Below are positions 39,598 to 56,364 of a stretch of DNA of 64,000 bases, piece by piece; positions within the stretch are counted from its first letter, which is position 1, and every line of letters starts with the position of its first letter. Below the pieces are notes generated by a model that saw only the letters and a program-made list of their open reading frames with translations, made no database searches and was not told where the DNA came from. The stretch is from an uncultured Desulfurococcales archaeon. GTDB lineage: Archaea; Thermoproteota; Thermoprotei_A; Sulfolobales; WANQ01. The DNA lies in contig CAYXRT010000004.1 in assembly GCA_964467535.1 (NCBI GenBank), forward strand, positions 20,956 to 84,955. The letters are read 5' to 3'. A program made the position numbers and the translations under genes.

Positions 39598-42500
39598 GTG
39601 ACTTTAGCGGGGATTATTATAAGGCATAGAAAAGCCATTGTGATCTTATGGGTTATAGCTATTGTCTTAAGCATTCCCATCTTTAAGAAACTTGATGAAA
39701 TACTCGTTTATGAAGAAGAAAGCTTCCTTCCGCCAACAGCTGAATCAGCTATAGCTAATAAAATTCTTAAGGAAGAATTCCGTGAAGCACCTCCAACACC
39801 ATATTACTTATTAATAATCACAAAGCTTAACACATCTGATCATCGTTATCAGGAACTCTATAAAGAGTTCAAAAATAAAGTATTCCAAAGAAACCTAGTT
39901 AAGAAATTTACAAGCTACTATGAATTTTTAAATGATACTAAGGAAATAGCTCATAAAATGTTATATAATATAGTCACCAATTTACATAATGCTACATTAA
40001 TGCTTAAAAACATGCTAGAATTAATGAACATGACCTATAACATTCTCTATAATAACATAACTATGTTACCTAAGTTCATGAATCAGCTATATAATTACAC
40101 ATTAACATTCGATAAAATGTATGTTGGCATGTATGAAAACTTTTCACAAATATCAAGAACATATAATAGCTTAGGAGAATATTTAAAACAGATTGATAAC
40201 GCTTTTAATCAAACCCTTTACTTAGTCTTATTCATAAATACGACATCATCCTATATCACATTACTGAATAATACATATTCCGAAATCTATATCAAGGTAG
40301 TTAATTTCTCGAAACCCATAGCTATAATCAGGTACTTGATAAGTGAAGTTGATGATTCATATTCAAGATTATATAATAGTTTATCTCAGTTAAGAGAGTC
40401 ACTAATCAGTTCATATAAAGGTGTACTGGAACTCAATTCCTTCATATATGAATTACCATACTATTACATAGTGACGTATTTCAATATAACGAGAACACAT
40501 TACTATATGTTAAATGCATTCAATTATTCAGCACCATTATTTATACTCGATGAATTAGTGAAATTAACTAATGTCTCTTCAATTGATCCTACCTTAGGAC
40601 CTATTAATAAATCTCTTGCATTATACCTGTACTATGAAGTTAAGGTTAAGAATAGGTTTGGTGATCCTAAAAATGTTGATGAATACGACTTAAATGTTCT
40701 TACGAAAGAATTATTACAGGCTTTAATATCAAAACACGTACCTAAAGAGTATCGTGATATTGTTAAAATATATTTAAGTACAATAGCTAGTGAATGGAGT
40801 AGCTTTATAGATGAGTTTATTAAGAAGGGCGGTATTCTTAAGTGGTATGTTTATGATAAAGAAAACCTAACAAATACATGGATTAGTCAAGTAAATGTTT
40901 ACTATAAATTAAATAGCGTTTATGAAAATCTATTAAAGACTTCATTTAATAACTCTAAAAATGATATAGCTGAAACCCTAGCGGTCAAATTTAATATCCC
41001 ATTAGAACTTGCATTAAATATCGTTAATATTGCTCTAGATATAGGATTTCCAGCTAATGAAACAAGAGCTAAGGAGCTTATTATAGACCTCTTCGCTAAA
41101 ATTCTAAGTGAGAAAATAAAGGAACCTTCAATCAATTATAAGGAGTTAGTAAGACATATATGGAAGCATGGGGTTTCGCCAGAGCTAGCGTTAAATCTAA
41201 CACGTATAATCACGTATAAATACATTGATGAACTGGAAATACCTGAAGAATTTATAAGTAAAGAGGAAATAAAGAACAAATTACTACCTTTAATATTCAG
41301 CGTAATAGCTGAAGCCGATCCCGATGCTAAAGGACTTTTAACGACCGACCCTAATCTCAAAAAGCATACCATTTATGTCGTGGTTACATTAATGGACATA
41401 TTAAACATTAAACTTCCAAGAGAACTAGCAGAAGTCGATATATATGATTTAATGACATCGATTTATGATTACCTAGTTAAGAAAGATGATAAAATTATTA
41501 GATCTATGATTAGAAATCTAATGTTAAATTTTGTTGAAAAAGAAGTGCCTAAGGAGTACATTCCTATAGCATCTAAGCTTGTGGATCTAACGTGTACCTT
41601 ATGGCCTGTTAATGCTAGTAAAGAATTAGAAATCATTGAAACGTGTGTTAACTTCATGGTTAATGTCACTAAAGCTGAGATATCAATAAATATAACTCCT
41701 ATTATGTTGAAGTATTATCCATTAATTAAAGAGGCAGAGGTCATTAAGGAGTTAAGGAATATATCTTGGAACATTTTATTGAATTTAATGGAAGAAGTTA
41801 ATGAAACTGCTCCAACATTATTAGCTATCTTAAAATCACCCAATGTATTTAGCTTTAAAATTAGGGATATATTAGTCGATAGAGGACTATGGCTCCACGA
41901 TGTAGAGGATGAAGTTAAAGAGGCGTTTAAAGAACTTCTTATAGATACTTTAATGAAATACAAGGTTCATGGAATAATCTTAAACAAAGATACTATAGTT
42001 AAAGCTGTAAATTTAATAATAGCTAATGAAACTCTAAACGCATCAAGACTTATATTAAGTGAAGTATTTAGAAAGCTTCCAGTAGAATACAATATTACAT
42101 CCATAATCCGATACTTAATTAACCAAAAGCCAGGTTTTACAAGTAATAAAAGTAGGGTTAAGGAACTCATAATAGATATATTCTTAGATGAATTTAGCAG
42201 CAGGTTTAAGGATGTAGTTAGTAAGAATACAATAGCATTTACGTTGAACGTAGTCTATGGACCGGAGGAATTACCAAGGAGTAGTATAAGTCATGAGTTA
42301 TCATCTAATCTAACTTATATTTTACTAGAAGAAATCATAACTAATACCCTTAAGAAGGCTAATGTAACAAATGAAACTACTATATGTGAATTACTTGCTA
42401 AAATACGTGGCAAGTTACCAATTACTAAGAGCCAGCTTAAACACATAGTTATTCAGGAAATCCTAACTCAAGCTACGGAATTTGTTAAGGGTACGGATGT

Positions 42501-44481
42501 GGAGAAATACATAACTTCATTAGTTAATGATGTATATGGGCTAAAGGAAAATGCCACTAAGCACGATTATGATGCAATAATATTAAAGTACTTGAACTCT
42601 ATAGTAGAGGATATCTTGGAAGAATCAAAGGAGCTTTTAGGAGTACTTGTTAGCGATGATAATGATACAATGTTAATAGCTATAGAAACATATGAGAATC
42701 CAGAAAGTGATGAAGCTTTCAATAAGGTTTTAATGGTTAGGAAAATAGCTAAGGAAATCTTTGAGAAAAAAGCACTATGTAAAGTATACTTAACTGGCCC
42801 TCAACCTTTATTAACTGATGTAGCGGAGCATGCTAGAAAGGATAGGGAACTTGTTGATAGGCTTAGCCCAATACTAGTAACGATAGTGTTATTTGTGGTC
42901 CTTGGCGGTATTCTGGCACTAATAATGCCTATGGTAGGTATAATATCATCAATAATAATATCATCAGCAATAATATATTTAGTAATATCTAAAATAACCG
43001 ATATACACATCTGGTCAAGAATAATAATGATTACGACAGCTTTAGGCCTTGGTGTAGATTATTCAACATACCTTATGTCAAGATTTAAGGAAGAACTAGC
43101 TAAGGGTAAAACTAGGGAAGAAGCAGCTGAAATAGCACTAAGTAAATCTGCACCTGCAATACTAGCAGCTGCAACAACCGATATGGCTGGTTTCGGAATA
43201 CTTGCAGTTGCATGGGACTTTCCATTTCTTAGAAGCCTTGGCGTGACAATACCAATAGCGATATTAATGGTTATGTTAGCGGGATTAACGTTAATACCAT
43301 CAATATTGGCAATGATCGGTAGTAGCAAAGCATTTTGGTGGCCTAGAGGAATAAAACCATTAAGGGAGGTAAAGAAATCATCATTTATACAAAAAGTAGC
43401 TAGGAGAGCAGGAATCGTAATATTGGTCTTCATCGTGATTTCATTAACCTCTGCATATACTTACGTAAAGTTATTTAGACCATCACACGAATATTCTATA
43501 GCATTACCGATGGGAGCTGAATCTTCTCAAGGACTCGAACTACTAAAGAGAGAATTAAAGCCAGGAATACTAGCACCCGTTTATGTAATTTTAGAATTAA
43601 AGGTTAATGCTACTAAAAATGAAACCTTACATTTAATCGAGGAAATTAGTAGATATATTGACTTATTACCTTATACTACAATCGTTTATGGACCTACGAG
43701 ACCTAATGGAACATTACTAGAGTCGGTAAATGTGGAAACCGTAAGAAAAATGGGCGGTTTAAGGTATATTGCAGGAAATAAGGTGTTATTGAAAGTAGCA
43801 TTAAATGCAAGCCCTGATTCAGATTATGCTACTACTGCTCTAAGAGAACTTAGAAGAGATCTAAAGGAGCTAATTAATAAGGAGTATAGTGATATAATTT
43901 CTCATGTATACGTCGGTGGTTTTACAGCAACTTTAGTAGATCTAGATATAACTCTTGAAGAAACCTTCTGGCACAAAATATTGCCAATTGCATTCATAGC
44001 TATGTTCATATTATTAACGTTAACACTGAGAACAGTAATAGGCTCAGCAATAGCTGTCATATTAATAGGCAGTGCTATCTTATGGGGTGTGGCATTAACA
44101 ACAGTAACGTTTAAGGTATTATTAGGTATTCCGATAATATGGTTCCTACCAATAATGGTCTTTAGCATAATACTTGGAGTAGGTATGGACTATCTTTCAT
44201 TCTACATGGTTAGAGCCATGGAAGAATCGAGGAATAGATCAATGGATGAAGCTCTTGCTATCGCTGGTGGTGCTGTAAGTAGAATAATAATAGGATTAGC
44301 ACTCATAGTATGTGGAGCCTACGCTGCTCTACTAGCTGCTGATATGATGCTTTTAAGGGAAATAGGATTCGCATTGACATCAAGTATATTCATAATAAGT
44401 ATATTGACTTCATATACAGTACTACCAGCAATATTATCAAAATTGGGTAAGAAGGCTTGGTGGCCGAGAAAAATTAGCTAA
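39598..44481 (+). CDS. Giant MMPL/RND-superfamily membrane transporter (1627 aa)
   Basis: TM1 at residues ~13-30. About 1050 aa of extracytoplasmic region. TM bundle from ~residue 1089 with GLGVDYSTYLMSRFKEE (MMPL signature). About 170-aa second loop. Second TM bundle with GVGMDYLSFYMVRAMEE. Confidence 0.8.
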   Translation: MTLAGIIIRHRKAIVILWVIAIVLSIPIFKKLDEILVYEEESFLPPTAESAIANKILKEEFREAPPTPYYLLIITKLNTSDHRYQELYKEFKNKVFQRNLVKKFTSYYEFLNDTKEIAHKMLYNIVTNLHNATLMLKNMLELMNMTYNILYNNITMLPKFMNQLYNYTLTFDKMYVGMYENFSQISRTYNSLGEYLKQIDNAFNQTLYLVLFINTTSSYITLLNNTYSEIYIKVVNFSKPIAIIRYLISEVDDSYSRLYNSLSQLRESLISSYKGVLELNSFIYELPYYYIVTYFNITRTHYYMLNAFNYSAPLFILDELVKLTNVSSIDPTLGPINKSLALYLYYEVKVKNRFGDPKNVDEYDLNVLTKELLQALISKHVPKEYRDIVKIYLSTIASEWSSFIDEFIKKGGILKWYVYDKENLTNTWISQVNVYYKLNSVYENLLKTSFNNSKNDIAETLAVKFNIPLELALNIVNIALDIGFPANETRAKELIIDLFAKILSEKIKEPSINYKELVRHIWKHGVSPELALNLTRIITYKYIDELEIPEEFISKEEIKNKLLPLIFSVIAEADPDAKGLLTTDPNLKKHTIYVVVTLMDILNIKLPRELAEVDIYDLMTSIYDYLVKKDDKIIRSMIRNLMLNFVEKEVPKEYIPIASKLVDLTCTLWPVNASKELEIIETCVNFMVNVTKAEISINITPIMLKYYPLIKEAEVIKELRNISWNILLNLMEEVNETAPTLLAILKSPNVFSFKIRDILVDRGLWLHDVEDEVKEAFKELLIDTLMKYKVHGIILNKDTIVKAVNLIIANETLNASRLILSEVFRKLPVEYNITSIIRYLINQKPGFTSNKSRVKELIIDIFLDEFSSRFKDVVSKNTIAFTLNVVYGPEELPRSSISHELSSNLTYILLEEIITNTLKKANVTNETTICELLAKIRGKLPITKSQLKHIVIQEILTQATEFVKGTDVEKYITSLVNDVYGLKENATKHDYDAIILKYLNSIVEDILEESKELLGVLVSDDNDTMLIAIETYENPESDEAFNKVLMVRKIAKEIFEKKALCKVYLTGPQPLLTDVAEHARKDRELVDRLSPILVTIVLFVVLGGILALIMPMVGIISSIIISSAIIYLVISKITDIHIWSRIIMITTALGLGVDYSTYLMSRFKEELAKGKTREEAAEIALSKSAPAILAAATTDMAGFGILAVAWDFPFLRSLGVTIPIAILMVMLAGLTLIPSILAMIGSSKAFWWPRGIKPLREVKKSSFIQKVARRAGIVILVFIVISLTSAYTYVKLFRPSHEYSIALPMGAESSQGLELLKRELKPGILAPVYVILELKVNATKNETLHLIEEISRYIDLLPYTTIVYGPTRPNGTLLESVNVETVRKMGGLRYIAGNKVLLKVALNASPDSDYATTALRELRRDLKELINKEYSDIISHVYVGGFTATLVDLDITLEETFWHKILPIAFIAMFILLTLTLRTVIGSAIAVILIGSAILWGVALTTVTFKVLLGIPIIWFLPIMVFSIILGVGMDYLSFYMVRAMEESRNRSMDEALAIAGGAVSRIIIGLALIVCGAYAALLAADMMLLREIGFALTSSIFIISILTSYTVLPAILSKLGKKAWWPRKIS

Positions 44482-44616
44482 TAAAATGTCATGTTATCCT
44501 AGACAATTAATAAATTGTTAGTGTCATTTAATCCTTGACTTTTGCGTTCTATGGAATAGCATCAAATATTTTTAAGCTCATATTTATTTTGAAGTGATGA
44601 ATAGGAGGTTACATAA

Positions 44617-45798
44617 TTGAAGGTAATACGAGTTATAATTACATTCCTTTTATTATTCATCCTTACTGCTTTTATCCCGCTTAGTACCATAGCTTATACA
44701 TCATCAAAAACGTTCGGATATATAGCTAACGAACCTGTAGATGCTATAGAAGTTGTATTAAATAAGCCTGACATTAAGTATGATTGGAGTAAGTTTAGAT
44801 CTCTTAGTAATATAATCCCTATAAGATATGATATCGCTATTGAAGCATATGCTTATAGAAGCCATTATAATCCAAATATTGCAGTAATAGTCACGCTTCA
44901 AAGCCTCAAAGAACCTAAAGGAAAGGATAAGTACTTTACAATTATGGTAATGGGCTTACGAAGATATGTGAAGATATTAAATACAACTATTAAACCAACT
45001 CCTGTGGTACTAACAGTAATTGATATAAATTTATTAAAGCAAGCAGCTGAAAAGCTTGGTTGGAATGTAACTGTTTATACAATAAAAGATTTAGTTGAAT
45101 TTGAAGTTGAATTCTTTGTAAAGATAAAAGATGGTGTGTCAATCTTAACATCGGAGGATATAGAAGAAGCTCCGCTCTTTATACCTAGTAATGAAAGTAA
45201 AGCAGTAGTATTAGAAAAGAGACTTGATAACGCAACTATCAAGCTATGTTTAATTAACCTACCTATAGCTCCTGGTAAATGGAAGATAAGAATACATCAA
45301 GTAGTTTCTGGAGATTTCCAACAAGTACGTTATAAATATATCTATGAGATTTATAATCTTATTAATTCATTAGGTTTAGTTCTTCCCATGGGCTTACCCC
45401 TTCCTGTGAAAGTAATAACTGTGAGATTTGAAGATCTTGTCAATGCCCTAAGGTTTGAACTTGAGTGGTTTAGAGATATAGGTATCATAAAGAACCTTAC
45501 AGATGACGATATAGAGAAAATAATCTCTACTGCTAGTACTAGCTTTTATGGATGGAATGAGAGATTGGTTTATTATAATAAAACTTGGCTACCTTATCAT
45601 ATTGTTGTTCGTAAATTTAATGGCACGCTATTAGATTACACACCCATTCCTAAAGTCGATGTTGATGAATTACCAGGTTCACCACCATTAGTAATTAAGG
45701 AGAAGGTAGATCCTATGAAGATAATGATGGCATTACTAATATCGTTATTAATAGCGTTTATAGCGCACATATTATTAAAGACAACAATGAGGAAGTAA
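44617..45798 (+). CDS. Hypothetical surface protein (N-terminal signal/anchor, C-terminal TM anchor)
   Basis: VIRVIITFLLLFILTAFIPLSTIA at the N-terminus. IMMALLISLLIAFIAHILL plus a basic tail at the C-terminus. Several NxS/T sequons. Confidence 0.5.
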   Translation: MKVIRVIITFLLLFILTAFIPLSTIAYTSSKTFGYIANEPVDAIEVVLNKPDIKYDWSKFRSLSNIIPIRYDIAIEAYAYRSHYNPNIAVIVTLQSLKEPKGKDKYFTIMVMGLRRYVKILNTTIKPTPVVLTVIDINLLKQAAEKLGWNVTVYTIKDLVEFEVEFFVKIKDGVSILTSEDIEEAPLFIPSNESKAVVLEKRLDNATIKLCLINLPIAPGKWKIRIHQVVSGDFQQVRYKYIYEIYNLINSLGLVLPMGLPLPVKVITVRFEDLVNALRFELEWFRDIGIIKNLTDDDIEKIISTASTSFYGWNERLVYYNKTWLPYHIVVRKFNGTLLDYTPIPKVDVDELPGSPPLVIKEKVDPMKIMMALLISLLIAFIAHILLKTTMRK

Positions 45799-46899: not shown

Positions 46900-47805
46900 A
46901 TGTTTGAAGACAGGTACATGATTGATGATACATTCTTGGAAAAGCTTAGGAAGATCAAAGAAATAGACAAGGTAGTAGATATTTCTAGATCAACAATACA
47001 ATTGGAAATACTTCTCTATTTAGGAGTTCGTGAGAAAGCTTCTATTGATGACCTGGTAGCAGGTTTAAGTTATAGAAGGAAGGCAATCACAGATGCATTA
47101 AGGAAGCTTATTAAGAAGAATCTAGTAGTAAAAGATCAAAGTTCGGAGGAATTTGAGCTAAGTAATACGGGTAGGAAATATTTTAATGAACTTCTTCGAA
47201 TCCTTGGCTATAAAAACACTATGAAAGGGATACATGAAATAAAGAAATCAATGAATCCTACTTCACGATTAAAGAATATGATTAATGAAATTTCAACAGC
47301 CTACTATCTACATGAAACATTGATTTGCCTAGGCTCATCTCCTAAGCATGAAGCATCTATAGAAACTCTTTCAAGTATAGTTAACTTAAGTCCCCAGAGA
47401 TTAAGGTCATACTTGGACCTTTTTGCAAATAAATCAAATCCTGAACTAAGATTGTTAAAGAAGATTTATAGAAATACGTTATTTACAAATATACTTTCAT
47501 TACTAGGAGTAAAGAGAAGTAAGGTAAAGGTATACTATGGGTTAACAAAGCAAGGCTTAGGAATACTTCGTAAACTGCCTACCTATATTAAATTGAAAAG
47601 AAATGTTTTCTTAAGAATACTGTTTAAACTTACAAGGAGCTGTCATCCAAAAGAAGCTCATAGAAAAATGCTTTTATTGTTATGTGGAGGCACAATTTTA
47701 GCATATGCATTAACGATCCTACGTCCATGGGGTGTATGGATAGCTGCTATATGGCTTTACGCATTTATTGTCTTAACAGCTCTAACTATCCTTGCAACTG
47801 AGTAA
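46900..47805 (+). CDS. ArnR-like membrane-bound archaellum regulator (wHTH plus two C-terminal TM helices)
   Basis: wHTH STIQLEILLYLGVREKASIDDLVAGLSYRRKAITDALRKLIKKNLV. C-terminal LLLLCGGTILAYALTIL and VWIAAIWLYAFIVLTALTIL. Located immediately upstream of flaB, as in Sulfolobus. Confidence 0.55.
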   Translation: MFEDRYMIDDTFLEKLRKIKEIDKVVDISRSTIQLEILLYLGVREKASIDDLVAGLSYRRKAITDALRKLIKKNLVVKDQSSEEFELSNTGRKYFNELLRILGYKNTMKGIHEIKKSMNPTSRLKNMINEISTAYYLHETLICLGSSPKHEASIETLSSIVNLSPQRLRSYLDLFANKSNPELRLLKKIYRNTLFTNILSLLGVKRSKVKVYYGLTKQGLGILRKLPTYIKLKRNVFLRILFKLTRSCHPKEAHRKMLLLLCGGTILAYALTILRPWGVWIAAIWLYAFIVLTALTILATE

Positions 47806-48220: not shown

Positions 48221-48880
48221 TTGGGTGATAGATGGTTGAGAGGTAAAGTTAAAGGTATAACAGGTTTAGAAACAGCAATAATCTTAATAGCCTTCGTAAT
48301 AGTGGCCTCGGTATTTGCCTTCGCGGTTATGAACATGGGTCTTTTAACAACGCAGAAGGCAGGGTCAACTGTAGAAAGTGGTATGAAGCAAGCATCATCA
48401 GCACTTCAACTAGCAGGAAGCGTAATAGCATATGACGGCCTATATAATGGTTCTACATTTATTACCAATAGCGGCAATGAAAATAAGGCTGATGCCATTG
48501 AAATCTACGTTAAACTAGCCCCAGGTAATGAACCTATCAGTATAAGCAATATGACAATATCATACACTAACAAGAGAGTACATGTAGGAGACTTAGTGAG
48601 CCTAAATAATACACAAGCTCCAGCCACCTACCCACTTATAGTATTCAAGTGGATTGGTGCTGATAACGATAGCTTATTGGAGTCTAATGAAGTACTAGCT
48701 ATAATAATTAACGTAGGAAACGTCACTGGTATAGACACTGTTGGCCCATCATCAGGTAGCGACGGTGCTTTAGGACCTAATGAGTGGTTTAAGGTGGAGA
48801 TTAAGCCTCCTGTTGGAGCCGTGTTAAGTGTTGAACGTACATTGCCGGCAGCTATTGACTCAGTTATGGATTTAGGTTAA
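48221..48880 (+). CDS. flaB: Archaellin
   Basis: Class III signal peptide and conserved hydrophobic N-terminus KG/ITGLETAIILIAFVIVASVFAFAVMNMGLLTTQKAGS, near-collinear with Sulfolobus FlaB. Candidate TTG starts at 48221 or 48236. Confidence 0.85.
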   Translation: MGDRWLRGKVKGITGLETAIILIAFVIVASVFAFAVMNMGLLTTQKAGSTVESGMKQASSALQLAGSVIAYDGLYNGSTFITNSGNENKADAIEIYVKLAPGNEPISISNMTISYTNKRVHVGDLVSLNNTQAPATYPLIVFKWIGADNDSLLESNEVLAIIINVGNVTGIDTVGPSSGSDGALGPNEWFKVEIKPPVGAVLSVERTLPAAIDSVMDLG

Positions 48881-48962: not shown

Positions 48963-49736
48963 ATGTCGAATCAAAGTATGACCGAGAGCTATGAGGAGCT
49001 AGAATTTAAGGTAAAAGCACTCGAAGAACGCATAGCTAAACTTGAGAACGAACTGAACTCGGTAGTAGATGAAGTCAGGACTGTCTTGGTTGATGTGAGG
49101 AGTACAATTTCTGAACTCGATAATCCATTAAACTATATTAAGGAACTAGGTTTAAGCTCGTTAATTGAAAGCGCTATTGAGGAAAAGCTTGAAAAAATCA
49201 TAGATGATAAGCTTAAGGAGATAAGAAAAGAGGTAAAAGAAAAAATTTCACAGGTAAAGACACTTAAACAGCCTGAAGAGAAGAAAGAAGAGAAAAAGCA
49301 TACTAAACCTTCACAGTTAGAGTTAAGCCCTTATGGCATTGATTTGAAATTAAATAAATCTTTAGAACGTCTCGTGAGAGAATCATCAACTTCAATAGAT
49401 AAGATCTTGAGTATGCTTACTTGTGCAGGTTGTCTCGTGTATATTTTCGGTAAGAGGGGTGTTGAGAGAGTATTGGATGAATATGCTAAGAGAGGATGGA
49501 TTACACATGATCTTAAATTAACGTTATTACAGATTTCATCATTATTAGAATTAGATGGCTTACCCGATGAAAAAGAGACTGGTATTGAGGATCACTTAAT
49601 AGTAATGTATTTACTAGATAAACTACATAGAGGGGCACCTTTAACAGACTTTATTGTCTTATTATTACTGCTTAGCAAGTACGCAGGTTTTCCATTTATT
49701 CTAAGAGTTATTGAAAGAGAACAAAAGCCTAGGTGA
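48963..49736 (+). CDS. flaX: FlaX-position protein with coiled coil and FlaC/D/E-like C-terminal domain
   Basis: N-terminal heptad-rich LEFKVKALEERIAKLENELN. C-terminal CLVYIFGKRGVERVLDEYAKRGWITHDL resembles the archaeal FlaD/E domain. Sits between flaB and flaG. Confidence 0.55.
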   Translation: MSNQSMTESYEELEFKVKALEERIAKLENELNSVVDEVRTVLVDVRSTISELDNPLNYIKELGLSSLIESAIEEKLEKIIDDKLKEIRKEVKEKISQVKTLKQPEEKKEEKKHTKPSQLELSPYGIDLKLNKSLERLVRESSTSIDKILSMLTCAGCLVYIFGKRGVERVLDEYAKRGWITHDLKLTLLQISSLLELDGLPDEKETGIEDHLIVMYLLDKLHRGAPLTDFIVLLLLLSKYAGFPFILRVIEREQKPR

Positions 49737-49742
49737 TGAACA

Positions 49743-50234
49743 TTGACACATGTAGTTATGGCTGAAACGATAATAGTTATTGCAACTATCATAGCGGCTT
49801 CATTTGCTACAACAGCCATAGTAATGAATTTAGACGGTCTTGTTAATACATTTAGGGTTAATGAAAGAAATATTAAAGATAAAATTCAAACACAAATAAC
49901 AATAGTATTTGCAACCATCAATACCAATGACACTGTTAAAGTATGGATAAAGAATACAGGTATAAAGGAAATTCACGAAGATCTTATACCTAAGTCTGAC
50001 TTATTCTTCGGACCTAAGGGTAATTTTAAAAGAATACCATATGAAACCTCAACAGCTTCACCACCTAGATGGAACTATACAATCGTTAACGATGTTGATG
50101 GTGATGGGAATTGGGATCCAGGTGAAACAATAGAAGTGACAATAATATGGGATACAGCACTAGATTTAGGAGAATACTACGTAAAGTTTGTACTATACAA
50201 TGGTGTAGATGATGACTACACATTCTCAATCTGA
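49743..50234 (+). CDS. flaG: Archaellum protein FlaG
   Basis: N-terminal hydrophobic AETIIVIATIIAASFATTAIV. Beta-rich soluble domain with WDPGETIEV. Operon position. Confidence 0.7.
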   Translation: MTHVVMAETIIVIATIIAASFATTAIVMNLDGLVNTFRVNERNIKDKIQTQITIVFATINTNDTVKVWIKNTGIKEIHEDLIPKSDLFFGPKGNFKRIPYETSTASPPRWNYTIVNDVDGDGNWDPGETIEVTIIWDTALDLGEYYVKFVLYNGVDDDYTFSI

Positions 50235-50243
50235 GGTGAAATA

Positions 50244-50795
50244 GTGGGATTTGGTAGTGTAATTGCTGCAGTCTTTGCAATCATGGCAATCATAGTGGTT
50301 ATGTGTACGGTAATGGGTGTCACATTTGTAAATATCAAGGAGCTATATAACGCTCTCAATAAACAGCTAGAATTATCTAACGAGAGAATAAAGACAAGAA
50401 TGCAGATCAATAATATCATTATAGATTCCCTAGATCCATCAACAGTTTATGTCAATATTACAAATATTGGATCTACTTCAATAAAGGTTGAAGGTTTCAA
50501 TAAAACAGATGTAATAGTGATTTATACTTCAACTACAGGTACTAAGATAACCGCTAGGTTAATGTATAATGCTTCTGGTGTTGGAGTTAATATATGGTAT
50601 GTGAGAAGAGTTTTTGTCAATGGAAGAGAGGATGAAGTGATTAATCCTATGAATTTTGAGAATAATCAAGGTTTATGGGATCCAGGTGAAACAATAGAAA
50701 TTGTTCTTAAGTTAGAGTACAACGTTGATTCTTCAAAAGGGTTCGCACTTGTAATAACTCTTCCAAATGGTGCAAGAACTTCACATACCACATGA
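50244..50795 (+). CDS. flaF: Archaellum protein FlaF
   Basis: N-terminal TM GSVIAAVFAIMAIIVVMCTV. Soluble domain with WDPGETIEI. Operon position. Confidence 0.7.
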   Translation: MGFGSVIAAVFAIMAIIVVMCTVMGVTFVNIKELYNALNKQLELSNERIKTRMQINNIIIDSLDPSTVYVNITNIGSTSIKVEGFNKTDVIVIYTSTTGTKITARLMYNASGVGVNIWYVRRVFVNGREDEVINPMNFENNQGLWDPGETIEIVLKLEYNVDSSKGFALVITLPNGARTSHTT

Positions 50796-50804
50796 GGTGA
50801 GAAG

Positions 50805-51524
50805 ATGAATCCTCCTAAGGGTATATTAAGAACAGGTAATGCGGAACTTGACAGAGTTACAGGAGGCATTCCTGTTCCATCACTAAACCTCATTGAAGGG
50901 GAAAACGATAGCGGAAAGAGCGTTATTGTTCAACATCTTGCATGGGGAGGTCTTATAGAAGGCTTCACTGTACGCTATATTACAACTGAAACCACGGTTA
51001 AATCATTAATCATGCAAATGAAGAGTCTATCTCTTGATATTCTACCATACTTTATTAAAGGACAGTTTAAAGTTACGGCACTCCATGTTAAGAATATTTC
51101 ATGGGATGAGAGAATAGCAAAATATTATCTCTTGGCAATACTACATTTTATTAAACATAAAGGATTTGCTGATGTAATTATAATAGACTCTTTAACGTAC
51201 ATAGCTACTCACGCTAACACAAATGATCTACTATTATTTCTTTCAGAACTAAGAAATATAGTTGATTCAAGAAACATCATTGCAGCTATAACAATTCATC
51301 CATATGCTTTTAGCAGTGACTTGCTTGTTAGAATTCGATCTATATGTGATGGTCATATGTTATTAAGTATAAAGGTTCTTCCAAATAAGGAAGTTGTAAG
51401 AGCACTTGAAGTAGCTAAACTTAAAGGTGCAAGGAAAACAACTGATAACATTGTCTTCTTTAAAGTTGACCCCGCTTTCGGCATAAAAGTAATCCCCGTA
51501 TCACAGGTCAAGGCCTCAAGGTGA
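50805..51524 (+). CDS. flaH: Archaellum RecA/KaiC-like ATP-binding protein FlaH
   Basis: Walker A GENDSGKS, Walker B-like VIIIDS. 239 aa. Directly precedes flaI. Confidence 0.8.
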   Translation: MNPPKGILRTGNAELDRVTGGIPVPSLNLIEGENDSGKSVIVQHLAWGGLIEGFTVRYITTETTVKSLIMQMKSLSLDILPYFIKGQFKVTALHVKNISWDERIAKYYLLAILHFIKHKGFADVIIIDSLTYIATHANTNDLLLFLSELRNIVDSRNIIAAITIHPYAFSSDLLVRIRSICDGHMLLSIKVLPNKEVVRALEVAKLKGARKTTDNIVFFKVDPAFGIKVIPVSQVKASR

Positions 51525-51530
51525 GAATAC

Positions 51531-54290
51531 ATGGAGGTAATGGATTCAAAGATTCCATGTAGCTTCGATGTTAGCAGGTGTTGGATTTGTGCAAAGATGG
51601 GTGGTGAATTTGAACGCTTTGCTAAGTATAATCCACACCTAGTTCAATACGTACACGAATGGTTTTCTACATCTCGTTTAGGATTTCCTAAATTTGTTGT
51701 AAGACTCTCACGAGAAATGGGTTATTCAAAGAGGTACAATTACATATACCCTGTTGGAGGACCCATATTCATACACGTTTATAGAGATCTAGGATACACG
51801 CATGGAATATACCATCCAATAGAGCCATTATTACCACCAGATAAGAAAATATTATTAAGGCAAGTTGAGGAACTTATTGCGTCTCTCATTGATGATCAAA
51901 TTATTGAAGAACTTAAAGGTAATAAAGCTGAAGTACTTACAAAACTACTCAATGAAGTAGTAGAAATAGTAGATAAGAAGGAATTTAGTAGGATTACCAA
52001 AAATACACGTCATCTATTCAGCTTTAGAAGAAATAAGAAGATAAGTAAAATCTATGTAGATGAAGAAACCTATGCAAGATTAAAGTATGAGTATCTAAGA
52101 GAGAAGGCAGGTTTTGGTGTCTTAGAGCCATTTTTAAAAGATCCTTACATTGAAGATATATCATGTGATGGTGTTGGACCTATCTTTGTCGAACATAAGG
52201 TCTTCCACTCATTAAGGTCAACTGTAGAGTTTAAGACTGATGAAGAATTAAATGCGTTCATAATCAGGTTAACTGAACGTATAGGAAAACCTGTAAGACC
52301 CAAGAGACCAATAGTTGATGCTGCACTACCTGACGGCTCTAGATTAAATGTGGTATTCGGTAGAGATATTAGCCGTAAAGGCTCTAACTTCACTATCAGA
52401 AAGCATTCAAAAATACCATTGAGTATAACAGAGCTCATAAAGTTTGGAACACTAGATGCTAGGATAGCTGCATATCTCTGGATGCTACTAGAGTTTAAGA
52501 TGAGCTTATTTATTTGTGGTGAAACTGCTTCAGGTAAGACTACGACGCTTAATGCAATTACGGTGTTTATTAATCCTTCAGCAAAGATTGTCTCAATTGA
52601 AGATACTCCTGAAGTAGTCTTACCACATCCAAACTGGGTTAGTGAAGTTACGAGACACGGCGAAGACGAGAAAACATCAATAGATCTATATGACCTACTT
52701 AAAGCTGCTCTTAGACAAAGACCAGACTACATAATAGTTGGTGAGATTAGAGGTAAGGAGGGTCACGTGGCATTTCAGGCAATGCAGAGCGTAGCTTGGG
52801 AAACTCCTGTCCTAATAAGAGATGTAATTACAGGAAAAGTAGAATTAATGCCCATAGGCGCCTTTGTTGATAGATTCTATAAGGAATATGAAGAAAAAAT
52901 CCCTAAACCTGTAAGAGGTTATGAAGTGCTGTCCATGGACCATTATGGTAAAGTTAAGTGGTCCAGAATAGAGTACGTCTTGCGCCATAGAGCTGAGGAA
53001 GTATATGAAATAACTTATGAAGGCAAAGGAACGATAAAAGCTACAGGCTCTCATAGTGTTTTCGTATTAGATGAAGATACTCTAGAAATTAGACCTAAAC
53101 TTGTCTCCGAACTTCAAAGGGATGACCTACTAATCTCCTTTGTTAGAAGGAATTATGTTCCAAGCATGTCAACTATAGCGGAGACCCGTAAACTTCCACG
53201 CAAGAGAAGCATTCATGTCGAACTTATAGACGGTGGTCAAGAAGAAGTTGTAACCTATACTACTAGAGATAAAAGATTAGCCGTAGAACTTATTTGGCTA
53301 TTTAAGCTTGCAGGCTTAGAATCAAAACTTTCTAAGGCTTATGATTCAAGGGCTGGCGAGTACTATGATATCCACATAAGGTTATATAATACTGAAAACT
53401 CAACATCATGGTGTGAAAGAGTACCTCTTAAACCAATACTTAAGTTCCTTGAAAGAACAAAATTAATTGATAAGTTACCTACAGGATTAGCCTATACAAT
53501 CAAGAAGCTCTACGAATCAGGTCAAAGATTTATTACGAGGCGTATCGCTAGGAAAATACTGAACTTCATAGAAGAACATATTATAGAGCTCAACAATGAG
53601 AATGTACTATTTATAAATAAGCTGAGAAAATTTCTAGAGAGCGATATAGCCCTTGTCCGAGTGCTAAATGTAAAGAAGATTCCATATAGGGGCTACGTAT
53701 ATGACTTATCCACACCTGAAACAGAGCTCTTCATAGGCGGCGAAATACCAATAGCTCTACATAATACTGGGCACCCAGTCCTATCAACATTTCACGCAGC
53801 TAATATGGAAAAGCTTATACAGAGACTAACCGGCAAACCTATTGAAATTCCACCAGCATATATTGATAATCTAAATGCAGTCGTATTTCAAAACTTAATA
53901 ATAGACCCTAGAACAGGTCGTGCAGAAAGAAGAGTAATAAGTGTTAATGAGGTTATAGGCTATGATGCAGCTGAAGGAACATACAATTTTATTGAAATAT
54001 TCTCATGGGATCCTAAGAGGGACGTCCATACATTCAGAGGTGTAGGTAATAGTTACTTACTTGAATACAAGATTGCACCAAGAAGGGGATATGTGGGTAG
54101 AGAAGTTAGGAAAATCTATGATGAATTAGAGATGAGGGCTCAGATAATACAAAAACTTGTTGAAAATAAAGTATTCAACTACTATGACGTATGGAAGGTT
54201 ATTTCAAAGATCTATGAAATGCCTATTGAAGATGCTTTAAAGAGGATTGATAGAATATGCCAAGAAGTTTTAAGGAAATCTTCTCAATAG
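51531..54290 (+). CDS. flaI: Archaellum motor ATPase FlaI, intein-containing precursor
   Basis: Walker A GETASGKTT, Asp box SIEDTPE, Walker B RQRPDYIIVGEIRG, His box TGHPVLSTFHA. 919 aa because of a 326-aa insertion. Confidence 0.9.
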   Translation: MEVMDSKIPCSFDVSRCWICAKMGGEFERFAKYNPHLVQYVHEWFSTSRLGFPKFVVRLSREMGYSKRYNYIYPVGGPIFIHVYRDLGYTHGIYHPIEPLLPPDKKILLRQVEELIASLIDDQIIEELKGNKAEVLTKLLNEVVEIVDKKEFSRITKNTRHLFSFRRNKKISKIYVDEETYARLKYEYLREKAGFGVLEPFLKDPYIEDISCDGVGPIFVEHKVFHSLRSTVEFKTDEELNAFIIRLTERIGKPVRPKRPIVDAALPDGSRLNVVFGRDISRKGSNFTIRKHSKIPLSITELIKFGTLDARIAAYLWMLLEFKMSLFICGETASGKTTTLNAITVFINPSAKIVSIEDTPEVVLPHPNWVSEVTRHGEDEKTSIDLYDLLKAALRQRPDYIIVGEIRGKEGHVAFQAMQSVAWETPVLIRDVITGKVELMPIGAFVDRFYKEYEEKIPKPVRGYEVLSMDHYGKVKWSRIEYVLRHRAEEVYEITYEGKGTIKATGSHSVFVLDEDTLEIRPKLVSELQRDDLLISFVRRNYVPSMSTIAETRKLPRKRSIHVELIDGGQEEVVTYTTRDKRLAVELIWLFKLAGLESKLSKAYDSRAGEYYDIHIRLYNTENSTSWCERVPLKPILKFLERTKLIDKLPTGLAYTIKKLYESGQRFITRRIARKILNFIEEHIIELNNENVLFINKLRKFLESDIALVRVLNVKKIPYRGYVYDLSTPETELFIGGEIPIALHNTGHPVLSTFHAANMEKLIQRLTGKPIEIPPAYIDNLNAVVFQNLIIDPRTGRAERRVISVNEVIGYDAAEGTYNFIEIFSWDPKRDVHTFRGVGNSYLLEYKIAPRRGYVGREVRKIYDELEMRAQIIQKLVENKVFNYYDVWKVISKIYEMPIEDALKRIDRICQEVLRKSSQ
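52788..53765 (+). mobile_element. Intein in FlaI (residues 420-745)
   Basis: Starts SVAWETPVLIRD (block A-like, Ser1). KATGSHSVFV (block B TxxH). YVYDLSTPETELFIGG (block F-like). Ends IALHN followed by Thr+1. Flanked by FQAMQ and TGHP, which are contiguous in intein-free secretion-type ATPases. Confidence 0.8.
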
Positions 54291-55747
54291 TTTTTACAGG
54301 TAAGAAGCTACGTTATTTAACTCTTCTATTCCTTCTCCACTTACTAGCTTGTTCGTACTCTCGTGTAACTAGACTAGACCTATTCAAGATGACGGCAAGA
54401 CCCGAATATGGATACATTACGCGTTTACTTAAGAGGATTAATGCATTAGTAAGTTTAGGTTTCGGACAAGCTAGAGCATGTGAAATAGTTGCTAATACTT
54501 CACGAGATAAATATTTAAGAGATTTCTTCTTAAGATTTGCTCAATCAATAAAAGTAGGTGAAGATATAACAGAGTTCCTGGAGAGAGAATATAAATCATA
54601 TGTAATAATCTATGGCTCTGATTATGAAAGGTCTATGGTTAGGCTTAAAAGACTTTCAGAAGCATATATCGCCGTGCTTTCTTCAACTATCTTTGTATCA
54701 GTCACATTTGCCCTTATGGGTATGTTATGGGGGGAGGAATTTGTTCAAGCTCTATGGATGCTTATGCTACCGCTTATGGGGATATATGGGCTGCTCGTCT
54801 TCATGTTTTACCAAATAGCTCCATATGAAAAGTTAGTATCAGATTCTCATAGAGCTAGAAACATAGATAGATTATTAACGTTATCTAAAGTTATGGTCAT
54901 AGCTACAATAATTTCGCTCATAATAAGCATATTCCTTAGTCTTCAATATTTAATACCATTAAACCTAATACCATTTATAGCATTAATATTTGGAGTACCT
55001 TCACTAACTATAGGGATCACAGGGATTCGTTTGATTAAGAAAATAAAGGTATTAGATGAAAAATTCCCGCCATTTCTAACAACTTTAGCATCATCAATAT
55101 CATCACTAGGAGCATCAGTAAGAGAAGCCCTTAAGGAAATTATGCGTATAGATTTTGGACCATTAAATAAGCTTATACGTAGCTTAAGGGCTAGACTTGA
55201 AGTCGGAATTGATGAAGAGATTTGTTGGAAATTATTTGAACGAGAAACTTCAAGTGAGATAATTATATTTCATAGTGAAATATTCTATGACTCTTTCAAA
55301 GCTGGTGCACCTGCCGTTGTGGTCGGAAATCTACTAGGAAAATCTGTTCTAAACATTCTAACTCTTAGGAAAAGACGTGAGGAGGTAAGTGCATTTCTTA
55401 GAAGCATTTTATTACCGCTACATCCAGCATTAGCAGCTATATTAGCATTAACTCTAGCCATAATTACAGGATTCACTGAATCCATTGAAACCGTTCAGCA
55501 AGCAGCATTACCTGTTCAAATCATAACACCTATACCAGTACAAGCTGTTGAAATATTCTCATATATTGTTCTATTTACAACCACGATAGCAAACGCCATG
55601 GTAATGTACATTATTGAAGGAGGTCATAGTGTAAATCTTTCATACTACCTAGGATTATTCCTCTTAACAGGATGCTTAATATACTTTGGAATATATAATT
55701 GGATGAGAATATTTCTACAGTCACTTATAGGAGGTGTTGGAGGTTGA
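54257..55747 (+). CDS. flaJ: Archaellum polytopic membrane protein FlaJ
   Basis: 496 aa with multiple TM helices and two cytoplasmic T2SS-F-like segments. Overlaps the flaI 3-prime end by 34 nt. Confidence 0.8.
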   Translation: MPRSFKEIFSIVFTGKKLRYLTLLFLLHLLACSYSRVTRLDLFKMTARPEYGYITRLLKRINALVSLGFGQARACEIVANTSRDKYLRDFFLRFAQSIKVGEDITEFLEREYKSYVIIYGSDYERSMVRLKRLSEAYIAVLSSTIFVSVTFALMGMLWGEEFVQALWMLMLPLMGIYGLLVFMFYQIAPYEKLVSDSHRARNIDRLLTLSKVMVIATIISLIISIFLSLQYLIPLNLIPFIALIFGVPSLTIGITGIRLIKKIKVLDEKFPPFLTTLASSISSLGASVREALKEIMRIDFGPLNKLIRSLRARLEVGIDEEICWKLFERETSSEIIIFHSEIFYDSFKAGAPAVVVGNLLGKSVLNILTLRKRREEVSAFLRSILLPLHPALAAILALTLAIITGFTESIETVQQAALPVQIITPIPVQAVEIFSYIVLFTTTIANAMVMYIIEGGHSVNLSYYLGLFLLTGCLIYFGIYNWMRIFLQSLIGGVGG

Positions 55748-56364
55748 TCTTCGTATGGAGCTTCTTTCTCAATTTAATCAATAAACAAATCAACTCTCTA
55801 CTTCTTGGGATTATTCTGGGTATAGCTATAGGTTTAATTGAATTAGGGGTGATAATATTTCTCAGAAGAACTGGAAGCAGAGGTCTAAGAATATCAAGAA
55901 AAACAATGAAGGAAGAAACAAGAGAGATTACAGGTTCAAAAGAAGCTCAAGAACCTGCGAGGGAGACTGTTAGATTAGATACAGAGCAGCCATCTATTTC
56001 TATATCAGAAAATACAAGCTCCCAAGAGAAAAAAGAGAAAACCCTAGAACCTACGGTTGAAGCTAAGGAAGCTGCTAAAAAGGAGGAGGTAGAGAATATA
56101 CCTAAACGTGTATCATTAGAAGATGTGCCTGAATCAATTAAAGCCCACGTTAAGAAAGTTAAAGTAAGGTCTCAACCAACTATAACTAGGGAGAAAACAC
56201 TTCAAGAAAGTATAGACAAGGCTTCTGAAAACTTGGTTCAAAAAGAGATTAAAGAAAAACCTAGTACAAGTGTAGGGGTTCTAGTGCAAGTCCTAAAGGA
56301 GGTTAATGAAGCTGTTAAAGATCTTCGTCAGAGACTTAAGAGAGGCTTATACGAGGAAGAGTAA
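55699..56364 (+). CDS. Hypothetical single-pass membrane protein with Glu/Lys-rich tail
   Basis: TM LLLGIILGIAIGLIELGVIIFL, then a charged low-complexity tail. The true start is probably an internal TTG near 55744, just at the flaJ stop. Confidence 0.45.
   Translation: MDENISTVTYRRCWRLIFVWSFFLNLINKQINSLLLGIILGIAIGLIELGVIIFLRRTGSRGLRISRKTMKEETREITGSKEAQEPARETVRLDTEQPSISISENTSSQEKKEKTLEPTVEAKEAAKKEEVENIPKRVSLEDVPESIKAHVKKVKVRSQPTITREKTLQESIDKASENLVQKEIKEKPSTSVGVLVQVLKEVNEAVKDLRQRLKRGLYEEE

Follow-up and report, generated by a model that had tools for sequence, protein, structure and literature searches.

In the genome of an uncultured Desulfurococcales archaeon, the gene for the archaellum motor ATPase ArlI (FlaI) encodes a protein of 919 amino acids (aa), in which 326 aa stand directly in front of the His box. 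What this insert is, whether it leaves the protein by splicing and whether it can still move are the questions raised by the locus, which lies in a 64-kb stretch of contig CAYXRT010000004.1 (64,000 nucleotides; hereafter the window). In all likelihood the gene encodes an ArlI precursor interrupted by a class-1 intein, which has a truncated endonuclease, is immobile, and splices to give a 593-aa ArlI.

Position, splicing motifs and fold of the insert

The precursor scored 653.9 bits against the NCBIfam FlaI equivalog model NF058587 (cutoff 550), and a phmmer comparison matched it to the crystal structure of FlaI from Sulfolobus acidocaldarius (SaFlaI; 4II7) with E=1.3e-135. Since the score lies above the cutoff and arlI is located within a complete arlB-X-G-F-H-I-J operon of the crenarchaeal type, the host is regarded as a bona fide archaellum ATPase. 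In the alignment to 4II7, precursor residues 185-419 correspond to chain residues 117-350 and residues 746-908 to 351-512. The insertion point is therefore between SaFlaI Q350 and T351, with no host residues lost, and the invariant His-box motif AFQAMQ/TGH is interrupted between Q and TGH. The insert begins with SVAWETPV at residue 420 and closes with ...IALHN at residue 745, and Walker A, Asp box, Walker B and His box keep their collinear order in the 919-aa protein. The parts of the precursor are listed below in window coordinates; counts out of 79 or 81 refer to inteins at the same site, treated in the next section.

51531..54290, + strand: arlI/flaI precursor gene, 919 aa plus stop (open reading frame (ORF) list, NF058587, 4II7 match)
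51531..52787, + strand: N-extein, aa 1-419, ending ...VAFQAMQ
52518-52541, + strand: Walker A, aa 330-337, in the N-extein
52587-52613, + strand: Asp box, aa 353-361, in the N-extein
52725-52754, + strand: Walker B, aa 399-408, in the N-extein
52788..53765, + strand: intein, 326 aa, precursor aa 420-745 (intein hidden Markov models (HMMs), AlphaFold2 model, Foldseek)
52788..53141, + strand: N-terminal Hint half, intein aa 1-118, aligning to the TFIIB mini-intein 5O9I
52788-52823, + strand: block A with Ser1 (Ser420); S1 invariant, 79/79
53028-53066, + strand: block B, T86-G-S-H89; T86 and H89 invariant, 79/79
53142..53213, + strand: linker, intein aa 119-142, of low confidence (predicted local distance difference test (pLDDT) <50 at 124-141 and 146-151; alignment gaps against the 458-aa relatives)
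53214..53381, + strand: LAGLIDADG remnant half, intein aa 143-198, beta-beta-alpha-beta-beta, ...VVTYTTRDKRLAVELIWLFKLAGLESKL..., homologous to the second module of full-length inteins
53400..53642, + strand: helical sub-domain, intein aa 205-285, RVPLKP...KLRKFLESD (alignments; pLDDT about 90)
53643..53765, + strand: C-terminal Hint half; Y305, D306, F315, H325 and N326 invariant, 79/79
53691-53741, + strand: block F, GYVYDLSTPETELFIGG, with D306 at position 4; D306 invariant, 79/79
53745-53765, + strand: block G, IPIALHN (H325-N326, followed by Thr746 as Thr+1); HN/Thr+1 in 81/81
53766..54287, + strand: C-extein, aa 746-919, first residue Thr+1; residue 746 corresponds to SaFlaI T351
53766-53798, + strand: His box TGHPVLSTFHA, aa 746-756, opening the C-extein

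Three intein models recognise the insert above their cutoffs: Pfam Intein_splicing PF14890 with 61 bits (cutoff 35.8, E=1.5e-16), TIGR01445 with 36.1 (cutoff 24.5) and TIGR01443 with 16.9 (cutoff 15.6). Judged by these Pfam and TIGRFAM scores, the set of splicing signatures is far beyond chance. An AlphaFold2 model of the intein, computed from an alignment of 20 same-site inteins, reached a mean pLDDT of 88 and a predicted template modelling score of 0.85. The Hint fold is present in this predicted structure, and a Foldseek search of the PDB returned the solved inteins PI-PkoII (2CW7; E=5e-14, query-normalised template modelling score (TMq) 0.67), TliVMA (7QSS), PI-PfuI (1DQ3) and the TFIIB mini-intein 5O9I (target-normalised score (TMt) 0.87) at the top, all matches with E <0.01 being intein, intein-like or Hedgehog domains. 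At the sequence level, the best matches among solved structures were the TFIIB mini-inteins 5O9I/5O9J (E=2e-15); next in rank came PI-PkoII, the Pho RadA intein and Mja KlbA.

On the sequence models, the motifs and the predicted fold, the 326-aa insert is a canonical class-1 (standard) intein. The insertion is in frame and collinear, it carries Ser1, the TxxH motif, the block-F Asp and HN/Thr+1, and an intact empty-site allele exists elsewhere. A class 2 intein, with Ala1 and a Cys+1 that attacks the amide directly, is ruled out by Ser1 and Thr+1; a class 3 intein, marked by a WCT triplet with its block-F Cys and lacking an N-terminal nucleophile, is ruled out by Ser1 and by Asp at block-F position 4. 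A six-frame scan of the whole window found no further intein. The preliminary description of this DNA, made from the letters and their ORFs, had placed a 326-aa insert at 52788-53765 in a 919-aa flaI ORF, just before the His box, and had read the secretion-ATPase motifs as otherwise collinear; the ORF, the 4II7 alignment and the motif positions agree with it exactly. The signatures that it listed (Ser1, TxxH, block F and HN/Thr+1) are all present, the Hint-domain HMM comparison that it proposed gave scores above the cutoffs of all three models, and in the proposed alignment to intein-free FlaI, SaFlaI runs continuously across the site.

Given the conservation of the motifs and established intein chemistry, splicing would proceed in four steps. 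The Q419-S420 peptide bond would be converted to an ester on Ser1 by an N-O acyl shift, assisted by T86 and H89 of block B. The N-extein would then pass to Thr+1 (T746) by trans-esterification with the assistance of block-F D306, and cyclisation of N326, assisted by H325, would free the intein. A final O-to-N shift would give the 593-aa ArlI with a native ...AFQAMQ-TGHPVLSTFHA... His box, together with the free 326-aa intein. In the unspliced precursor, Walker A, Walker B and the Asp box would be cut off from the His box as well as from the C-terminal sub-domain. With Walker B and the His box held apart by the insert, such a precursor should have no ATPase activity, and archaellum assembly, rotation and motility would depend on splicing.

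The helical sub-domain at intein aa 205-285 is conserved across the same-site family and kept even in a 260-aa mini-intein. It gave no significant fold match in the PDB, although its last helix can be aligned with the TFIIB mini-intein. The sub-domain may serve in DNA binding or as a scaffold, and its position may be comparable to that of the 'stirrup' of PI-PfuI.

The TFIIB inteins of Methanocaldococcus (5O9I and 5O9J) resemble the window intein at the N terminus, where VDY[SN]EPIIIKE aligns to VAWETPVLIRD, and share with it the helix before block F. They differ in host protein and insertion site, and the PDB entries are engineered mini-inteins. PI-PkoII, PI-PfuI and TliVMA have the same architecture, in which a LAGLIDADG domain is inserted into a Hint domain (TMq 0.51-0.67), but carry complete two-module endonucleases, whereas the window intein keeps only about half a module.

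The comparison with KlbA is of another kind. The Mja KlbA intein (2JMZ), whose host is a secretion-ATPase homolog related to FlaI, shares the Hint fold (Foldseek E=5.5e-4, TMt 0.69) and a weak sequence similarity (E=1e-4) with the window intein, and the N-terminal motifs are alike: ALAYDEPIYL in KlbA, SVAWETPVLI in the window and SVAYDEPVLL in the same-site relative P0153. KlbA is a 168-aa mini-intein, and with Ala1/Cys+1 it belongs to class 2, as opposed to Ser1/Thr+1 and class 1 in the window. KlbA inteins follow a three-step splicing route that starts from Ala1 and uses Cys+1 (PMC2807308). Mechanistically, the window intein is thus not of the KlbA type, because it has Ser1 and Thr+1. The insertion site may differ as well: in the mutated 2JMZ construct, on which this comparison rests, neither VAFQAMQ nor TGH has an aligned counterpart in the extein stubs, and the intein is followed by A-S-S, not N-xGH. 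The exact 71-aa Mja KlbA fragment of 2JMZ had no match in an index of 5.8 billion proteins or in the GTDB genomes, where the locus seems to be absent or masked.

Inteins and empty alleles at the His box

With the precursor as query, about 5.8 billion proteins were searched, and many FlaI homologs 800-1055 aa in length came up that contain PF14890, either together with PF14528 or without it. In all 81 intein-bearing FlaI homologs retrieved, the insert is located at AFQA[MI]Q/S...HN/TGH, with Ser1, HN and Thr+1 (81/81), and S1, T86, H89, Y305, D306, F315, H325 and N326 are invariant in 79 of 79 same-site inteins. This invariance of the splicing residues in 79-81 inteins indicates purifying selection on the splicing chemistry. 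The shortest insert has 229 aa and the longest 459 aa. Roughly 19 are full length, at least 12 of these with an intact LAGLIDADG motif 1, and the others are shortened. The window copy, with 326 aa, is an intermediate deletion form.

Named carriers include 'archaeal flagellar protein FlaI [Desulfurococcaceae archaeon AG1]' (909 aa), a Zestosphaera sp. and Fervidicoccaceae. In L002, a metagenome-assembled genome (MAG) of an uncultured Desulfurococcales archaeon, the intein is likewise found in ArlI inside an arl operon with the same gene order. The inteins of these carriers have the same insertion point and the same Ser1/HN/Thr+1 as the window intein; identity to it is 35-56% across the full intein and reaches 74% in the Hint region. 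The window extein comes from a different lineage, being closest to intein-free FlaI of the Nezhaarchaeales and Methanomethylicia type. A scan of GTDB representatives returned FlaI genes that were only 42-54% identical, from MAGs of Desulfurococcales and Woesearchaeota. Among 1.84 billion representatives, scanned without a profile, 364 intein relatives came up; FlaI-family ATPases made up 42 of the best 150, and nearly all of those spanning the site carry an insert there (FQAxA/SV...HN/TGHGG), several having more inteins, at Walker A and elsewhere.

A second intein occupies the Walker A site in 4 of the 81 intein-bearing FlaI homologs. Extra inteins were seen in the FlaI-family ATPases P0046, P0052, P0054, P0108, P0123-P0141, P0131 (2140 aa) and P0253, at Walker A (query about 332-337) and near query positions 270 and 358. 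In P0253 one intein directly follows the Walker B sequence GEVRG, and some FlaI-family ATPases appear to hold at least three inteins.

The preliminary description knew of no intein at this position of FlaI, and on this point it has to be corrected: the allele is abundant among FlaI homologs and its family has been counted. COG0630 is the FlaI/ArlI/VirB11 secretion-ATPase family. Table 3 of Novikova et al. (2016; PMC4760082), which names VirB11 only, counts 21 inteins in archaeal COG0630, from Crenarchaeota, Euryarchaeota and other Archaea. As presented in that paper, these inteins likewise lie in the P-loop ATPase domain and are labelled as secretion or mobilome components, and its main text is silent on the archaellum and the His-box site. 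In the searchable literature on FlaI, ArlI or the archaellum together with inteins, we found no paper treating an archaellum-ATPase intein. The FlaI His-box intein allele is thus not new but populous, already sequenced and partly catalogued.

A survey for intein-free alleles, also proposed in the preliminary description, found them among the closest relatives. When the spliced 593-aa extein was used as a query, 118 of the 120 best matches were intein-free, including the three closest, at 78%, 70% and 69% identity; the nearest named intein-free relatives are MAGs of Nezhaarchaeales, Baldrarchaeia and Methanomethylicia. In L007, which encodes the 78% identical FlaI in a syntenic arlX-G-F-H-I-J locus, a codon-anchored DNA comparison with the window arlI revealed a clean empty site, GCTATGCAA/ACAGGACAC, with flanks of 79% and 74% nucleotide identity. 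The junction is uninterrupted in 83 intein-free homologs and reads AFQA[MI]Q/TGH in 81 of them, each of the other two having one flanking-residue change.

Several independent contigs of 25.8-139 kb (NCBI, JGI including metagenome 3300014911, and ENA) encode this 919-aa protein or single-residue variants of it, which rules out an assembly artefact.

The many shortened copies allow a second reading of why such an intein is kept. An immobile intein could be retained since its splicing responds to temperature, metal or another cofactor, and thereby gates the maturation of the motor ATPase and motility post-translationally. This would agree with the observation that most same-site inteins, 59 of the 79 being shorter than 450 aa, lack an endonuclease while their splicing residues are perfect, and with an insertion site inside the catalytic core of the ATPase; reports of such splicing exist for other archaeal ATPase inteins, for example RadA. 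The sequence, however, shows no sign of a sensor, and Ser/Thr nucleophiles are not redox-sensitive; the suggestion of the preliminary description that Ser1/Thr+1 chemistry could make splicing condition-dependent found no support. Mini-inteins with intact splicing residues are moreover expected to persist regardless, since selection would act against an intein that fails to splice in an important gene, and 118 of the 120 closest orthologs manage without an intein. A conditional switch is therefore considered unlikely. If it were true, the many independently shrunken yet catalytically perfect copies would reflect selection for regulation and not mere tolerance, and motility would be under an extra, post-translational control.

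Decay of the endonuclease and origin of the intein

The class-1 intein with a truncated endonuclease finds its closest comparison in the full-length inteins of the same site, which are ~458 aa long and have a canonical LAGLIDADG motif 1, for example LAYLLGIYLADG. In alignments to three of them (P0008, P0017 and P0022), ~130 aa are gone from the window intein, corresponding to one LAGLIDADG module including the LAYLLGIYLADG motif-1 helix. An active LAGLIDADG homing endonuclease has two modules that form a pseudo-dimer with catalytic acidic residues, and the window intein does not have this pair. Pfam LAGLIDADG_3 scored 13.7 bits on it (E=0.075, cutoff 22.5) and covered only profile positions 22-73, as compared to 42.6 bits on the full-length relative P0008. 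To judge from the alignments, the linker at aa 119-142 marks the place where ~130 aa were deleted together with the motif-1 module in them, and the LAGLIDADG homing endonuclease is decayed.

Decay had been suspected in the preliminary description, and the sub-threshold score and the deletion of about 130 aa support it. The two LAGLIDADG-like traces named there fared differently. 'ELIDGG' is placed against different motifs by two alignments, so that it can be assigned to neither motif 1 nor motif 2, but it is a possible relic of a LAGLIDADG motif; 'LFKLAGLES' is not a LAGLIDADG motif but the helix that is conserved in the remaining half-module, where relatives have WLARLAGLESK.

The ancestral intein would have carried a two-motif LAGLIDADG endonuclease, as the ~458-aa relatives at the same site still do. 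Having lost about 130 aa including the motif-1 module, the intein would no longer be able to home, and would now be a fixed, immobile resident of the lineage. Its GC content (0.372) and its GC at third codon positions (GC3; 0.304) match those of the exteins (GC 0.368/0.354, GC3 0.279/0.264), which is consistent with a long residence. The Hint region is 0.67-0.74 identical to the group with full-length endonucleases, where extein identity is 0.48-0.53, and this Hint identity lies +1.7 to +2.6 standard deviations above the family trend. Because 118 of the 120 nearest exteins are intein-free and the Hint region resembles distant copies more closely than the exteins do, the intein was probably acquired horizontally by homing, followed by decay of the endonuclease.

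Some points weigh against this interpretation as a whole. The family trend behind the argument for horizontal transfer is weak (r=0.40), and repeated precise loss of the intein in near relatives would explain the same pattern. When the central region was modelled separately, Foldseek found no significant match in the PDB (best E=0.05); weak fold matches to I-OnuI/I-DmoI had E about 0.2-0.4, and the assignment as a LAGLIDADG remnant thus rests on sequence homology to the full-length relatives. Furthermore, the searchable literature holds no experimental evidence of splicing for any FlaI intein, the window copy included.

The central region might instead be an active, unusually compact homing endonuclease that still invades empty arlI alleles. 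The beta-beta-alpha-beta-beta half-module and the conserved helical sub-domain do survive with high model confidence, and the Hint domain is closer to distant copies than expected. A whole LAGLIDADG module is nevertheless missing in comparison to the 458-aa relatives, with ELIDGG assignable to neither motif; LAGLIDADG_3 stays below its threshold and no meganuclease fold is matched significantly; and a lone half-module could cut only as a homodimer, of which the intein scaffold gives no sign. Continued mobility is for these reasons very improbable. Equally hard to sustain is a dead or domesticated insert that does not splice, the 919-aa protein either working with an extra domain or being the product of a pseudogene: all catalytic positions are intact and invariant across the family, the insert parts Walker B from the His box in a RecA-like ATPase core, the ORF has no interruption and hardly varies between independent samples, and the rest of the arl operon is complete.

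The arl operon and the meaning of the ArlI intein

The genes around arlI, and the regulator upstream of the operon, are as follows.

46900..47805, + strand: ArnR-like helix-turn-helix regulator, upstream of the arl operon (archaellum activator ArnR model NF041016, 118.6 bits, below the cutoff of 400)
48221..48880, + strand: arlB archaellin (Pfam Arch_flagellin, 115.5 bits)
48963..49736, + strand: arlX-like gene (Arch_fla_DE, PF04659, 24.3 bits)
49743-50234, + strand: arlG (Pfam Arch_flagellin, 37.3 bits, cutoff 29.5; NCBIfam ArlG, 40.5, cutoff 110)
50244-50795, + strand: arlF (Pfam Arch_flagellin, 49.0 bits, cutoff 29.5; NCBIfam ArlF, 31.6, cutoff 110)
50805..51524, + strand: arlH (NF004723, 279.9 bits, cutoff 194)
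54257..55747, + strand: arlJ (NF004705, 281 bits, under the cutoff of 400; Pfam T2SSF, 35.2, cutoff 25.2)

The NCBIfam ArlG and ArlF models are the top matches of their genes though below threshold, and the assignment of arlG and arlF leans also on gene order. The longest arlJ ORF, starting at 54257, overlaps the end of arlI (54290) by 34 nucleotides; the JGI gene call on the same contig starts arlJ 132 nucleotides later, at 54389, giving 452 aa instead of 496 aa. Near its N terminus, ArlI has a Cys-rich stretch, PCSFDVSRCWICA (aa 9-21; 51555-51593), which has no aligned counterpart in FlaI of S. acidocaldarius. Directly after arlJ, at 55699-56364 (+), there is a gene with no family match; a gene of similar size is found at the same position in the syntenic relative L007 (5598-6221), the products being about 207-221 aa in both. 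To judge by position and size, this could be a gene associated with arl that is so far uncharacterised. On the upstream side of the arl region, 39598-45798 (+) encodes a 1627-aa MMPL-domain protein followed by a 393-aa protein with a Heavy_Cys_CGP domain (Pfam). No tRNA genes, no rRNA and no Rfam families at gathering score were found in the 64-kb window.

Annotation should treat the gene as coding for a 593-aa ArlI with a 326-aa intein, and not for an aberrant 919-aa ATPase. The His-box site of ArlI is a well-populated intein allele that appears to have gone undiscussed in the literature. All stages of the homing cycle are represented at this site, from full-length endonucleases through partial deletions and minis to empty sites, with further Walker A inteins in some homologs. 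With copies at every stage, the site is a convenient natural series for the decay of an endonuclease. The thermostable, cysteine-free Ser1/Thr+1 mini-inteins of the same-site family could furthermore serve protein engineering. Current understanding is left unchanged; the case adds to the P-loop ATPases already known to have inteins in their catalytic motifs, and it would allow testing whether splicing can limit a non-replicative function, that is, motility.

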